A stretch of 19,905 bases of DNA, from positions 1 to 19,905 of IMG/VR virus record IMGVR_UViG_3300022932_000016; one strand, written 5' to 3'. The DNA is from a virus (Duplodnaviria > Heunggongvirae > Uroviricota > Caudoviricetes). The position numbers were made by a program, and so were the translations under genes. This document shows positions 996-4,812 of this stretch, in pieces. The notes under the pieces were generated by a model. That model ran no database searches. It saw only the letters and a list, made by a program, of their open reading frames with translations, and was not told the origin of the DNA. Position 1 is the first letter of the stretch. Each line of letters begins with the position of its first letter.

Positions 996-1068
996 TGGTT
1001 CTCACGCTAGGACTCGCACCCAGATAATCGGTTCCAAAGACCGAGGTCCTACTTTAGACGACACGAGA
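996..1068 (-). tRNA. trnQ: tRNA-Gln(UUG)
   Basis: Acceptor TCTCGTG/CGTGAGA, anticodon arm TCGGT CTTTGGA ACCGA, variant T-loop TGCGAGT, encoded CCA. Confidence 0.9.
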
Positions 1069-1071
1069 TTA

Positions 1072-1147
1072 TGGGGTAAAAGATGAGAATTGAACTCACG
1101 TTATCGGCACCACAAGCCGACGTTCTAACCATTGAACTACTTTCACC
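1072..1147 (-). tRNA. trnH: tRNA-His(GUG)
   Basis: G-1:C73, anticodon arm TCGGC TTGTGGT GCCGA, T-loop TTCAATT, CCA. Confidence 0.93.
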
Positions 1148-1152
1148 ACGCT

Positions 1153-1216
1153 TGGCTCTGCACACGGGTTGCAACGTCATTGGGGAGATATCATGCCCTT
1201 TGACACATGTGCAGAG
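1153..1216 (-). ncRNA. CCA-ended tRNA-like RNA A (64 nt, no anticodon arm)
   Basis: CTCTGCACA/TGTGCAGAG terminal stem followed by CCA, D-arm-like GTGT CAAAGG GCAT and a degenerate T-arm ACG TTGCAACC CGT. Sits between tRNA-Ser and tRNA-His with 2- and 5-nt spacers. Confidence 0.6.
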
Positions 1217-1218
1217 TT

Positions 1219-1302
1219 TGGCGGAAGATTGGATAATCGAAAACCATGCTTTCACACTCATCGCTTAGCGGGCGAGTCCAGTACCTTACTGGTTAATCTT
1301 CC
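1219..1302 (-). tRNA. trnS: tRNA-Ser(GCU), atypical (C33)
   Basis: Acceptor GGAAGAT/ATCTTCC, loop CC-GCT-AA, variable arm with GAAA loop, T-loop TTCGATT, G73, CCA. Confidence 0.85.
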
Positions 1303-1305
1303 ATG

Positions 1306-1393
1306 TGGCGGAGAGGGTGGGATTCGAACCCACGGTGAGTTTCCCCACACTGGTTTTCAAGACCAGCTCGTTCGACCGCTCTGACACCTATCC
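1306..1393 (-). tRNA. trnS: tRNA-Ser(UGA)
   Basis: CTGGT CTTGAAA ACCAG, long variable arm, GGTTCGAATCCC, G73, CCA. Confidence 0.95.
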
Positions 1394-1402
1394 ACATTTT
1401 TT

Positions 1403-1490
1403 TGGTCGGTCTAGCTAGATTCGAACTAGCACGAGGTGTTAACCTCCGCAGGGTTTAAGCCTGCTATGTCTACCATTCCATCATAGACCG
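1403..1490 (-). tRNA. trnL: tRNA-Leu(UAA)
   Basis: GCAGG CTTAAAC CCTGC, long variable arm, TTCGAAT, A73, CCA. Confidence 0.95.
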
Positions 1491-1495
1491 TTATT

Positions 1496-1582
1496 TGGTA
1501 CCGAAGGCGGGACTCGAACCCGCAAACTCTTTCGAGCACTGGTTCCTAAGACCAGCGTGTCTACCAATTCCACCACTTCGGC
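1496..1582 (-). tRNA. trnL: tRNA-Leu(UAG)
   Basis: GCCGAAGTGGTGGAATTGGTAGAC start, CTGGT CTTAGGA ACCAG, TTCGAGT, CCA. Confidence 0.96.
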
Positions 1583-1587
1583 ATATT

Positions 1588-1672
1588 TGGTGTGCTTACT
1601 CAGATTTGAACTGAGATGAGATTAACTCGGTAGCTTTTGAAACTACTGCGTATACCGTTCCGCCATAAGCAC
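1588..1672 (-). tRNA. trnL: tRNA-Leu(CAA)
   Basis: GTAGT TTCAAAA GCTAC, variable arm, TTCAAAT, CCA. Confidence 0.93.
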
Positions 1673-1677
1673 ATATT

Positions 1678-1752
1678 TGGAGAAACGTATCAGATTTGCA
1701 CTGATGTAAAACGGGTTTGCAATCCGTTGCGTAGCTGCTCCGCCAACGCTTC
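1678..1752 (-). tRNA. trnC: tRNA-Cys(GCA)
   Basis: ACGGA TTGCAAA CCCGT, U73, variant T-loop TGCAAAT, CCA. Confidence 0.9.
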
Positions 1753-1757
1753 ATATT

Positions 1758-1873
1758 TGGCACCCCCGCAAACCTTTAGGGTGAGCTAACAAGTGTTTTT
1801 TATAACGCGTATGTTGCACTTGCTTGCCTGCGTATCTACTCAGGTAATTAAGCTGAGCACTACAAACGGGGGT
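1758..1873 (-). ncRNA. CCA-ended non-cloverleaf RNA C (116 nt)
   Basis: 8-bp terminal stem ACCCCCGT/GCGGGGGT + G + CCA. Hairpins GCTCAG/CTGAGT, AGCAAGTG/CACTTGTT and ACC-CTAAA-GGT. Flanked by 5-nt AATAT spacers like the neighbouring tRNAs. Confidence 0.65.
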
Positions 1874-1878
1874 ATATT

Positions 1879-1949
1879 TGGTGAAGTAGGACGGAATCGA
1901 ACCATCGCCTTTTGATTTACAGTCAATCGGGTGCCCTGCACACTACAAC
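1879..1949 (-). tRNA. trnY: tRNA-Tyr(GUA), degenerate, short variable loop
   Basis: TTGA CTGTAAA TCAA, T-loop TTCGATT, CCA. Two T-T mismatches in the acceptor stem and a shrunken D-arm. Confidence 0.7.
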
Positions 1950-1954
1950 ATATT

Positions 1955-2031
1955 TGGTGGTTTCGGTCTGAATTGAACAGACGACCCCCTGTTCTTCAAA
2001 CAGGTGCTCTAACCAACTGAGCTACAAAACC
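1955..2031 (-). tRNA. trnF: tRNA-Phe(GAA)
   Basis: CCTGT TTGAAGA ACAGG, canonical D- and T-arms, CCA. Confidence 0.96.
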
Positions 2032-2075
2032 AAGTCGTACCTATCAGTTATAGACTATAGGTAAGTCTGTCTTGT

Positions 2076-2156
2076 TCGGGGAGCCAGGAGTTGAACCTGG
2101 GCATCGGGACTATATTACTCAGCTGCCCGCAGCACTATCGTTATGCTTACTCCCCG
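2076..2156 (-). tRNA. tRNA-like gene with a Pro-type acceptor, a 17-nt anticodon loop and no encoded CCA
   Basis: Perfect acceptor CGGGGAG/CTCCCCG + A73, D-arm AGCA/TGCT, T-arm CCAGG TTCAACT CCTGG. Anticodon stem CGGG/CCCG encloses CAGCTGAGTAATATAGT. Confidence 0.7.
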
Positions 2157-2161
2157 TTATA

Positions 2162-3713: not shown

Positions 3714-3788
3714 TGGTGCGGGTACACAGAATCGAACTGTGATCCCCTGATTGGAAGTCAGGTATATTAGCCGTTATACTATACCCGC
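3714..3788 (-). tRNA. trnG: tRNA-Gly(UCC)
   Basis: CCTGA CTTCCAA TCAGG, TTCGATT, A73, CCA. Confidence 0.94.
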
Positions 3789-3795
3789 ATTGATT

Positions 3796-3873
3796 TGGAG
3801 CCCCTCACGGAGTCGAACCGTTCTTCGTACCTACCACGGTACGCGTGCTAACCAGCGTTACACTAATTGGGGC
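3796..3873 (-). tRNA. Aberrant tRNA-Thr(GGU)-like gene with an 8-nt anticodon loop
   Basis: GCCCC/GGGGC acceptor with distal mismatches, D-arm GTGT/GCAC, CGTAC CGTGGTAG GTACG, 4-bp T-stem with TTCGACT, CCA. Confidence 0.65.
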
Positions 3874-3876
3874 GTA

Positions 3877-3950
3877 TGGGGCCGCCACTCGGTACTGCCC
3901 CGAGGTCGATAGTTTACAAAACTACTACTCTACTATTGAGCTATAGCGGC
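3877..3950 (-). tRNA. trnT: tRNA-Thr(UGU)
   Basis: GTAGT TTTGTAA ACTAT, variant T-loop GGCAGTA, D-loop AATAGTA, CCA. Confidence 0.9.
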
Positions 3951-3957
3951 ACGTTCT

Positions 3958-4033
3958 TGGTAGTCCCAGAAGGAATTGCACCCTCGACACCTTGTTCCGA
4001 AGACAAGTGCTCTATCTGCTGAGCTATGGGACT
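3958..4033 (-). tRNA. trnR: tRNA-Arg(UCG)
   Basis: CTTGT CTTCGGA ACAAG, variant T-loop TGCAATT, CCA. Confidence 0.92.
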
Positions 4034-4036
4034 ATA

Positions 4037-4140
4037 TGGTGCACGGGGGTAGCTTTAGGCTACCTCTATTCTAATAACGCTTTGGTGCACCTCTACGCTT
4101 TCGATTCTCGAGCCACGTTGCAACGATGTGCTCTCCGTAC
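4037..4140 (-). ncRNA. CCA-ended non-cloverleaf RNA B (104 nt)
   Basis: Terminal stem GTACGG/CCGTGC + A + CCA, 3' hairpin GGTAGC-CTAAA-GCTACC, 5' hairpin GAGC...CGTTGCAACG...GCTC, flanked by 5- and 3-nt spacers. Confidence 0.65.
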
Positions 4141-4145
4141 TAATT

Positions 4146-4230
4146 TGGTTGCGGGGACGGGATTCGAACCCGTGTATCTTGCGACAAAGGGATATGAGCC
4201 CTCCGAGAATGACCACTTCTCAACCCCGCT
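4146..4230 (-). tRNA. trnfM: Initiator-type tRNA-Met(CAU) with a long variable arm
   Basis: 1:72 mismatch (A-A), three G-C pairs GGG/CCC in the anticodon stem, loop CTCATAT, variable arm TGTC-GCAA-GATA, ACCA; 85 nt. Confidence 0.9.
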
Positions 4231-4235
4231 ATATG

Positions 4236-4312
4236 TGGTCGTCCCTCTAAGATTCGAACTTAGGACCTCCTGTGTGTAAAACAGGTGCTCTAGCCAATTG
4301 AGCTAAGGGACG
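4236..4312 (-). tRNA. trnV: tRNA-Val(UAC)
   Basis: CCTGT TTTACAC ACAGG, TTCGAAT, ACCA. Confidence 0.96.
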
Positions 4313-4320
4313 TTATTGTT

Positions 4321-4394
4321 TGGTCGGTGTAGGTGGTTCTGCCCCACCGTGTGCAGAATATAAGTCTGCTGTTCTACTATTGAACTATACACCA
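4321..4394 (-). tRNA. trnI: tRNA-Ile(UAU)
   Basis: GCAGA CTTATAT TCTGC, variant T-loop GGCAGAA, D-loop AATAGTA, ACCA. Confidence 0.88.
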
Positions 4395-4401
4395 GAATGC
4401 T

Positions 4402-4478
4402 TGGTTGGACGAGTAGGATTTGAACCTACGGTCTCCTGAATATCAGTCAAGTGCTTTAACCAGCTAAGCTACCGTCCA
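4402..4478 (-). tRNA. trnI: tRNA-Ile(GAU)
   Basis: CTTGA CTGATAT TCAGG, TTCAAAT, ACCA. Confidence 0.95.
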
Positions 4479-4485
4479 TTATTTT

Positions 4486-4560
4486 TGGTGGGCTCGGTTG
4501 GAATCGAACCAACGTGGTACAGATTAAAAGTCTGCTGCTCAACCACTGAGCCACGAACCC
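4486..4560 (-). tRNA. trnK: tRNA-Lys(UUU)
   Basis: GCAGA CTTTTAA TCTGT, TTCGATT, ACCA. Confidence 0.96.
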
Positions 4561-4567
4561 AAGATAT

Positions 4568-4589
4568 AAAAAAAGAGCTATATAGCTCC
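4568..4589 (-). terminator. Intrinsic terminator of attenuator 1
   Basis: GGAGCT-ATAT-AGCTCT followed by a U-tract that ends 7 nt before tRNA-Lys(UUU). Confidence 0.75.
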
Positions 4590-4613
4590 AACTATGACTT
4601 GAGTTGTAAGCTA
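4583..4613 (-). promoter_or_regulatory. Antiterminator of attenuator 1
   Basis: TAGCTT-A-CAACT / AGTTG-GAGCTA (11 bp) sequesters the 5' arm of the terminator; it begins 2 nt after the leader stop codon. Confidence 0.75.
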
Positions 4614-4615
4614 AC

Positions 4616-4777
4616 TTATTCCTTTTTCTTTTCACCCCGTTTTGTTAATGTACCCATAATGAACCCTGTCGCCACTGCTATAGCAATAATGCCGCCAGCA
4701 ATCACTGTCGTCTCTTTGGTGCGCTTGACGTATTTAACTAGGTCAGTTGCTTCTTTTTGAATCTTTTGGGTATTCAT
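4616..4777 (-). CDS. Leaderless leader ORF 1 (53 aa), putative attenuator peptide with a hydrophobic segment
   Basis: MNTQKIQKEATDLVKYVKRTKETTVIAGGIIAIAVATGFIMGTLTKRGEKKKE*; the ATG is 7 nt after TATAAT. Confidence 0.75.
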   Translation of the reverse strand: MNTQKIQKEATDLVKYVKRTKETTVIAGGIIAIAVATGFIMGTLTKRGEKKKE

Positions 4778-4784
4778 AGTATTC

Positions 4785-4812
4785 ATTATACACATATTAG
4801 TATATAATGCAA
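4785..4812 (-). promoter_or_regulatory. Sigma70-type promoter of tRNA unit 1
   Basis: TTGCAT-N16-TATAAT. Confidence 0.7.

Follow-up and report, generated by a model that had tools for sequence, protein, structure and literature searches.

A two-unit tRNA array with a short open reading frame ahead of each unit

We analysed a window of 19,905 nucleotides, the first 19.9 kb of a complete 83.9-kb virus record (IMG/VR record IMGVR_UViG_3300022932_000016, Caudoviricetes), in which two units of transfer RNA (tRNA) genes are each preceded by a promoter, a short open reading frame (ORF) and a terminator that we interpret as a leader-peptide attenuator. The genome (G+C 46%) encodes a tape measure protein, a portal and a large terminase, and thus belongs to a tailed phage. 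Its tRNA genes, at least 26, all lie on the minus strand between 4560 and 996 in two units that together serve 20 of 20 amino acids, and no tRNA gene was found in the rest of the 83.9-kb genome. Such a cluster of tRNA genes, within a genome carrying these hallmark genes, constitutes a phage tRNA array. ARAGORN called 22 of the tRNAs, Rfam added three (Thr, Ile and Tyr), and ARAGORN with relaxed thresholds added a Ser(GCU). The features on which the argument rests, in the direction of transcription, are as follows.

4785-4812, minus strand: promoter 1, with -35 TTGCAT (4812-4807) and -10 TATAAT (4790-4785)
4616-4777, minus strand: leader ORF 1, leaderless, ATG at 4777, stop codon ending at 4616, 53 codons plus stop
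4584-4612, minus strand: predicted antiterminator 1, with a 5′ arm starting 4 nucleotides past the stop codon and paired with the 5′ arm of the terminator
4568-4589, minus strand: terminator 1, a hairpin of 6 base pairs (-6.8 kcal/mol) followed by a run of 7 T
3056-4560, minus strand: tRNA unit 1, serving K, I, V, M, R, T, G, A and E
3011-3040, minus strand: promoter 2, with -35 TTGCAC (3040-3035) and an extended -10 TGgTATAAT (to 3011)
2912-3004, minus strand: leader ORF 2, leaderless, ATG at 3004, stop codon ending at 2912, 30 codons plus stop
2976-2989, minus strand: region 1 (leader-2 codons 6-10), pairing with region 2 in the predicted free-RNA fold
2929-2941, minus strand: region 2 (leader-2 codons 22-26, S-V-G-V-L), a copy of the terminator 3′ arm
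2852-2888, minus strand: terminator 2 (regions 3 and 4), a hairpin of 13 base pairs (-16 kcal/mol) followed by a run of 7 T
996-2484, minus strand: tRNA unit 2, serving W, D, N, P, F, Y, C, L, S, H and Q

Unit 1 holds tRNAs for Lys-UUU, Ile-GAU, Ile-UAU, Val, an initiator-like Met, Arg-UCG, Thr-UGU, Gly, Arg-UCU, Ala, Lys-CUU and Glu, together with odd RNAs ending in CCA and an ORF of 75 amino acids. Unit 2 holds Trp, Asp, Asn, Pro, Phe, Tyr, Cys, Leu-CAA, Leu-UAG, Leu-UAA, Ser-UGA, Ser-GCU, His and Gln, again with odd CCA-ended RNAs.

Both promoters are of the sigma-70 type, with a TTGCAx -35 box, and both leader ATGs stand 6-7 nucleotides after the TATAAT box. Promoter 1, which is identical in records L002, L003, L004 and L006, puts the predicted transcription start at or beside the ATG of leader 1, and promoter 2, kept in L003, L004 and L006, puts it at the ATG of leader 2. 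Over all leaders, including those of the related phages described below, the ATG lies 6-7 nucleotides after TATAAT in 12 of 14. The same TATAAT-N6/7-ATG start is found at ordinary genes of the window (5205, plus strand; 19368 and 13335, minus strand) and at an ORF starting at 3697 on the minus strand; among the genes concerned are one for a Gam-like protein, one for a glycosyltransferase and two small ORFs. As ordinary genes use an identical start, leaderless translation appears to be normal in this phage.

Each leader is composed of the amino acids served by its own unit

The sequence of leader 2 is MKTLYSHSLLSQLWSNCPDQFSVGVLSFSS. Its residues 4-22 form a core of 19 residues that contains all 11 amino acids of unit 2 and no others, and leader 2 offers a strictly cognate codon for 14 of the 14 unit-2 tRNAs, including the three Leu and two Ser species. 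In leader 1, 45 of 53 residues, and 35 of the last 37, come from the nine amino acids of unit 1, with a cognate codon for 11 of the 12 tRNAs. A search of the leader-1 peptide against 5.8 billion proteins returned only four near-identical entries, none of them annotated. A sequence-only reading that preceded our analysis had described two promoter, leaderless ORF and antiterminator-terminator units with these same compositions, and all of its numbers proved correct. Its estimate that the unit-1 set makes up about half of a typical protein agrees with the share found in the predicted proteins of this genome, which is 54% (46% for the unit-2 set).

We asked how readily such a match could arise by chance. 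Among the 1,326 six-frame ORFs of the genome, leader 2 is the only one with an in-set run that covers all 11 residues. For a random 30-mer, the probability of a run of at least 19 in-set residues covering all 11 is about 6.5e-8. As membership of the two sets is correlated with the base in the first codon position (purine for unit 1, pyrimidine for unit 2), we also ran shuffles that preserve codon position. The run and coverage of leader 2 were reached in 0 of 200,000 mononucleotide shuffles and in 0 of 55,098 codon-position-preserving shuffles. The signal of leader 1 is weaker and still significant (binomial, 4e-6; in-set count under the codon-position shuffle, 4e-4). Chance or base composition as the explanation was therefore rejected on the six-frame count, the probability estimate and the shuffles.

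Leader composition follows tRNA content in related phages

Three routes led to the relatives: the neighbouring RecT gene, a DNA motif that lies downstream of terminator 2, and further parts of two records; a near-identity search in cultured phages gave scattered tRNA matches only and no relative. The closest records, L003, L004 and L006 (RecT 92% identical), retain both leaders, and the core of leader 2 shows three synonymous and no non-synonymous changes among close relatives. Between the window and L003, leader 1 differs by 7 replacements and 8 synonymous changes, and residues of the set were exchanged only for other residues of the set.

The more distant L007 (RecT 57% identical) has two units as in the window. 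Its leader 2, MTYSLQQQLNCNHWPLSSDYFTLGA, again has a core of 19 residues made only of all 11 amino acids, in a different order, and the first 21 residues of its leader 1, MKMIVITGTKRAEGTERAVIKHVSKRTFTIYPS, use exactly the nine amino acids of unit 1. Compared at the level of sequence, what the leaders of the window and of L007 conserve is the rule and not the sequence itself.

A further clade (L011/L014, L009/L015, L019, L023 and L026) is marked by a separate Glu-Tyr unit. In L011, L009 and L019 the tRNA-Tyr gene comes directly after tRNA-Glu in a small unit of its own, and the leader-2 cores of L011, L009, L019 and L023, 18-22 residues long, are built from exactly 10 amino acids, Tyr not among them. 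In L011 and L009 these 10 amino acids are exactly the set of tRNAs downstream; the contigs of L019 and L023 end before their downstream sets, and the leader of L026 is cut by the contig end, its visible part of the core being without Tyr. A leaderless mini-leader, with a terminator after it, precedes the small Glu-Tyr unit in each of L011, L009 and L019 (MSKTYSYEERVTE, MTTTVTYYEERNVWYS and MTNNVNYYEERNPN, respectively), and these mini-leaders contain YYEE (codons TAT TAT GAG GAA) or YSYEE. Since they mix pyrimidine-first and purine-first codons, the YYEE mini-leaders argue against base periodicity as the cause of the match, as do the coverage tests. Read from their sequences, the relatives amount to a natural relocation experiment in which Tyr was moved to the Glu-Tyr mini-unit. 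In L005 (RecT 69% identical), where the array is reduced to Trp, Pro, Phe, Asn and Gln, the leader MKVLFQQPNFNFWSFNPVLIRVGV is enriched for F, N, Q, P and W, and Y, H, C and D are absent from it.

Predicted folds depend on the position of the ribosome

In fold predictions, region 2 of unit 2 pairs either with region 1 or with the 5′ arm of the terminator. The untranslated RNA is predicted to form the region 1:2 hairpin together with the terminator. With the A site of a ribosome on codons 5-18, region 2 is instead predicted to pair with the terminator 5′ arm, and with the ribosome at codon 19 or beyond, or at the stop codon, the terminator returns. The residues of leader 2 that fall outside its set are V-G-V, because the RNA arm of region 2 dictates them. 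In unit 1 the antiterminator is the predicted default and is lost only with a ribosome on the last 3 codons or on the stop; without a region 1, untranslated RNA is predicted to read through. The region 1:2 hairpin is present in the predicted folds of unit 2 and of the mini-leaders, and absent from those of unit-1 leaders, where read-through is the predicted default. Terminator 2 probably also ends transcripts arriving from unit 1.

A scan of folding against ribosome position covered 16 attenuators from at least 6 lineages. A terminator/antiterminator switch was predicted in 14 of the 16, with read-through only when the ribosome stalls in the matched core. Among codons at which a stall gives read-through, 99 of 110 were own-set codons, against 21 of 45 among the other codons (Fisher, 2.6e-8); in the mini-leaders, own-set codons made up 11 of 19 at read-through positions and 3 of 21 elsewhere (p=0.005). 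Between a leader tail and the terminator 5′ arm of its own attenuator, the pairing energy averages -17.9 kcal/mol, compared with about -10 kcal/mol for tail/arm pairs across lineages, and none of 20,000 permutations paired as well as the observed combinations. In these predicted structures, leader tail and terminator arms show the three-way covariation that is expected of a real antiterminator.

Taken with the relatives, these results bear on several further claims of the sequence-only reading. Its proposal of a ribosome-dependent attenuator, in which fast translation allows termination and stalling allows read-through, is supported by the comparative tests and the predicted folds. The leader ORFs are indeed kept in relatives; the expectation that leader composition would track tRNA content in homologous arrays is borne out by the Tyr loss, the YYEE mini-leaders and L005; the composition match withstands both purine- and codon-position-preserving shuffles; and the proposed antiterminators co-vary with their terminators across lineages.

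A model of ribosome-mediated attenuation of tRNA genes

Together, the anatomy, the composition match, its tracking in relatives and the covariation lead us to interpret both elements as ribosome-mediated leader-peptide transcription attenuators that control tRNA genes, a reading to which we assign a probability of roughly 0.8. As in known attenuators, a short ORF lies between promoter and terminator and is kept in relatives, its codons match the regulated tRNAs, an intrinsic terminator stands upstream of the tRNA genes, and an antiterminator that depends on ribosome position is predicted. From the sequence we infer that the leaders are translated, that translation is kinetically coupled to transcription, and what the physiological trigger is.

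In this model, transcription would start at the leader AUG, and a ribosome would translate the leader while RNA polymerase approaches the terminator. In unit 2, if codons 5-18 are passed fast, or if there is no translation, region 2 would be covered or paired with region 1, the terminator would form and transcription would stop. A stall in the core for want of any one of the 11 charged tRNAs would let region 2 pair with the terminator 5′ arm, and the read-through would transcribe the structured RNA of 2485-2846 and the 14 tRNA genes. In unit 1, the antiterminator would be the default, masked only by a ribosome that reaches the stop codon in time. Each leader would thus work as an OR gate with the amino acids of its own unit as inputs, and since the released tRNAs would relieve the stall, the circuit would exert negative feedback on decoding capacity.

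We also considered a wider proposal, which we hold only tentatively and at clearly less than even odds: that the phage carries a self-regulating decoding system, with tRNAs for 20 amino acids and its own initiator tRNA, in which the two leaders would serve as a 20-amino-acid speedometer of the ribosome and the depletion or cleavage of a host tRNA, by a defence nuclease or host shutoff, would switch on the matching set, making the array an inducible counter-defence and homeostasis circuit. The sequence-only reading had suggested that such a switch would suit the countering of anticodon nucleases or of a poor tRNA supply in a reduced host; neither purpose finds support in the analysis. A counter-defence role of the array would be plausible. 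A T4-type polynucleotide kinase-phosphatase with kinase and HAD phosphatase domains is encoded at 10791-11723 (plus strand), 6 kb from the array. An RNA ligase of the Rnl1 or Rnl2 type was not detected in the genome in searches with PF09511 and PF09414, of which the PF09511 part is uninformative as its control matched nowhere.

Alternative explanations and points against attenuation

A different view would be that the short ORFs encode functional small peptides, such as a membrane peptide in the case of leader 1, that the hairpins are ordinary unregulated terminators or processing sites, and that the match in composition is a by-product. In the window, leader 1 does resemble a small membrane peptide, with a hydrophobic stretch of 20 residues flanked by K/R, a shape shared by leader 1 of the L009 record, and gene callers list it as a protein of 56 amino acids. 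However, its homologues in L007 and in the L011 record are not membrane-like and keep the amino-acid restriction, and in leader 2 the order of residues varies among relatives while the set does not. A peptide function would also leave unexplained the tracking seen in the Tyr loss and YYEE, and the leader tail co-varies with the terminator arm, so that we regard this view as very unlikely. We find it more improbable still that the leaders are untranslated parts of an RNA-only element (a small RNA, a processing signal or a protein-binding leader) whose reading frame is an accident of a pyrimidine-first/purine-first pattern. In its favour, the unit-2 set is mostly encoded by YNN codons and the unit-1 set mostly by RNN codons, and leader 2 of L007 is not located at a transcription start. 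Against it, shuffles that preserve codon position never match the run and coverage observed, Y-first and R-first codons are combined in the mini-leaders exactly as their own tRNAs require, the frame is kept in every lineage, as is the ATG at +1 (leader 2 of L007 aside), and the changes in the leader-2 core among close relatives are synonymous only. The elements could also be real attenuators that sense the general status of translation, such as ribosome availability or a global slowdown, rather than the supply of specific tRNAs, the matched composition serving only to make the leader independent of the tRNAs of the other unit. Leaders of the unit-1 type respond to a delay anywhere in an ORF of 29-53 codons, and 9-11 amino acids per leader imply a low specificity. 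Restriction to the leader's own amino acids, and its tracking in relatives, are nonetheless what a tRNA-specific sensor predicts, and a general sensor has no need of YYEE before Glu and Tyr; its chance of being the right account seems small to us.

Several observations weigh against attenuation by tRNA-specific stalling, which we nevertheless prefer. Part of the in-set signal equals base periodicity. Leader 1 may have a second or different role, being membrane-peptide-like; it has no AGR codon for tRNA-Arg(UCU), and its internal Met codon is without a phage elongator tRNA, as the sole CAU tRNA looks initiator-like. Terminator 1 is weak (-6.8 kcal/mol). Leader 1 of L007 and leader 2 of L009 gave no antiterminator in minimum-energy folds, and the mini-leader of L009 has a marginal switch only. 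As the related phages share ancestry, they are not independent samples, and neither are the statistics over lineages. Before the 75-amino-acid ORF of unit 1, a possible internal promoter (3709-3704) could bypass attenuator 1 for the last four tRNAs of that unit. Should the host be of the Bacillota type and have transcription uncoupled from translation, the kinetics would be more difficult to attain. As to the host, TerL is 26-40% identical to that of phages of Bacteroidota and others, and the nearest cellular homologues of SSB are found in Bacillota at 35-48% identity, which allows no host conclusion.

Relation to known attenuators and to phage tRNAs

The mechanism class is classical. The leaders trpL, hisL, pheL, leuL and thrL and the multivalent ilvGMEDA leader likewise consist of a promoter-proximal short ORF with regulatory codons, a terminator and an antiterminator set by the ribosome, and unit 2 has the full four-region layout (1:2, 2:3, 3:4) of the trp attenuator. 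The phage elements differ in that their targets are tRNA genes, i.e., the sensed molecules themselves, in that each leader lists 9-11 amino acids once or a few times each instead of runs of one to three, and in that they are leaderless and phage-encoded, unit 1 in addition lacking a region 1. The genome divides all 20 amino acids between just two leaders. A search of the array against Rfam at a permissive threshold (E<=1) matched tRNAs only, with no leader family, no T-box and no other family. The elements thus fall outside the curated Rfam amino-acid leader class, as no model matched and the genes downstream are tRNAs and not a biosynthetic operon.

In E. coli, the pheM leader controls pheST, encoding phenylalanyl-tRNA synthetase, by attenuation. 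Here too the target of the leader peptide is part of the decoding machinery rather than a biosynthetic pathway, although pheM senses one amino acid, targets a synthetase gene and is a cellular element. T-box riboswitches also tie tRNA charging to terminator read-through, but they bind uncharged tRNA directly and need no translation. In mycobacteria, leaderless polycysteine short ORFs have been described as cysteine-responsive attenuators (bioRxiv 10.1101/834739); as described, these are likewise leaderless short ORFs at the 5′ end of an operon that act as ribosome-stalling sensors, and they differ in sensing one amino acid, in having protein-coding targets and in belonging to the host.

Phage tRNAs are described as evading tRNA-targeting defences (PMC10264068; PMC11555353), and the arrays of these studies, for which replacement of host tRNAs cut by defence nucleases has been proposed or shown, likewise form a large repertoire that could sustain translation when host tRNAs are depleted. 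In a term search, PMC10264068 made no mention of attenuation, leaders, promoters or terminators. The sequence-only reading had named no equivalent in phages, and this holds within the literature that we searched, i.e., full-text searches and papers on phage tRNAs, where no control of tRNA arrays by leader peptides or attenuators was found. The design appears to be unpublished, its new elements being the tRNA genes as the regulated genes, the breadth of 9-11 amino acids per leader and the leaderless start.

The regulation of phage tRNA genes is essentially unexplored, the debate being about why they are carried, for codon compensation or for escape from tRNA-cleaving defences. If our interpretation is true, phages measure tRNA supply and correct it on demand, and attenuation would reach beyond amino-acid metabolism to the tRNA pool, would cover 9-11 sensed amino acids instead of one to three, and would take in leaderless messenger RNAs. 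The switches are compact, about 150-210 nucleotides each, and could serve as natural sensors of codon-specific translation speed.

Other features of the array

The remaining features of the array are the following.

4324-4394, minus strand: tRNA-Ile(UAU), found by Rfam, anticodon from the alignment, usual T-loop sequence absent
3880-3950, minus strand: tRNA-Thr(UGU), found by Rfam, anticodon from the alignment, usual T-loop sequence absent
3470-3697, minus strand: ORF of 75 amino acids within unit 1, with its own TATAAT-N6-ATG start and no family match
2485-2846, minus strand: structured RNA of about 360 nucleotides between terminator 2 and tRNA-Trp, the first product of unit 2
1882-1952, minus strand: tRNA-Tyr(GUA), found by Rfam, anticodon called by relaxed ARAGORN
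about 1219-1302, minus strand: non-canonical tRNA-Ser(GCU), called at relaxed ARAGORN thresholds only
906-927, minus strand: terminator-like hairpin closing the array, from the sequence

The structured RNA has no match in Rfam. Compensatory changes are seen in 11 of its 31 predicted pairs across 6 relatives, and the RNA is present in all relatives found through its 5′ motif, with a length of 213-431 nucleotides. The 75-amino-acid ORF was considered as a third leader, for R, A, K and E, and rejected: by hand count only 25 of its 75 residues are in that set, a mild enrichment, and no terminator follows it.

A tRNA with U34 is present for every four-codon box (array 996-4560, minus strand), so that the set of roughly 26 tRNAs would in principle suffice for every sense codon and the phage, judged by its gene content, carries a near-complete minimal decoding set. 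Many of the array tRNAs are non-canonical (4146-4230, 2402-2484, 3880-3950, 4324-4394 and about 1219-1302, minus strand). The sole CAU tRNA is initiator-like, with a 1:72 mismatch, GGG/CCC in the anticodon stem and a long variable arm, and tRNA-Trp also carries a long variable arm. The CCA-ended RNAs that tRNA tools do not call lie at 4034-4145, 3789-3879, 3213-3309, 2032-2161 and 1753-1878 (minus strand); of these, the RNA at 3789-3879 combines a canonical T-arm and acceptor stem with an anticodon loop of 6 or 8 nucleotides containing GGU.

Some side observations concern the relatives. Unit 1 of the L011 record holds an extra tRNA (L014 1735-1797, plus strand) that has GAA (Phe) as its anticodon, C33 and an unusual acceptor stem, while a normal tRNA-Phe is found in unit 2. 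That this tRNA explains the F in leader 1 of the same record was dismissed as anecdotal, leader 1 of the window having F without such a tRNA. Directly before tRNA-Trp, L005 (7300-7388, minus strand) and L007 (5343-5420, minus strand) each show, by eye, a mini tRNA-like RNA with an acceptor stem of 7 base pairs, a G3:U70 wobble, A73, an encoded CCA and no normal anticodon loop. G3:U70 is the alanine identity pair, and to the eye these RNAs are reminiscent of the tRNA-like domain of transfer-messenger RNA.

In L005, an ORF of 76 amino acids with 8 Met (8455-8684, minus strand) ends right at tRNA-Met, and one of 62 amino acids with 8 Asn (5810-5998, minus strand) stops a little ahead of tRNA-Asn; no terminator follows either of them, and chance may account for both. 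The reduced array of this phage is interrupted by ORFs that by eye resemble homing endonucleases of the GIY-YIG (6560-7110, minus strand) and HNH (5225-5620, minus strand) kinds, and an ORF looking like QueD, also judged by eye, starts leaderless at about 8038.

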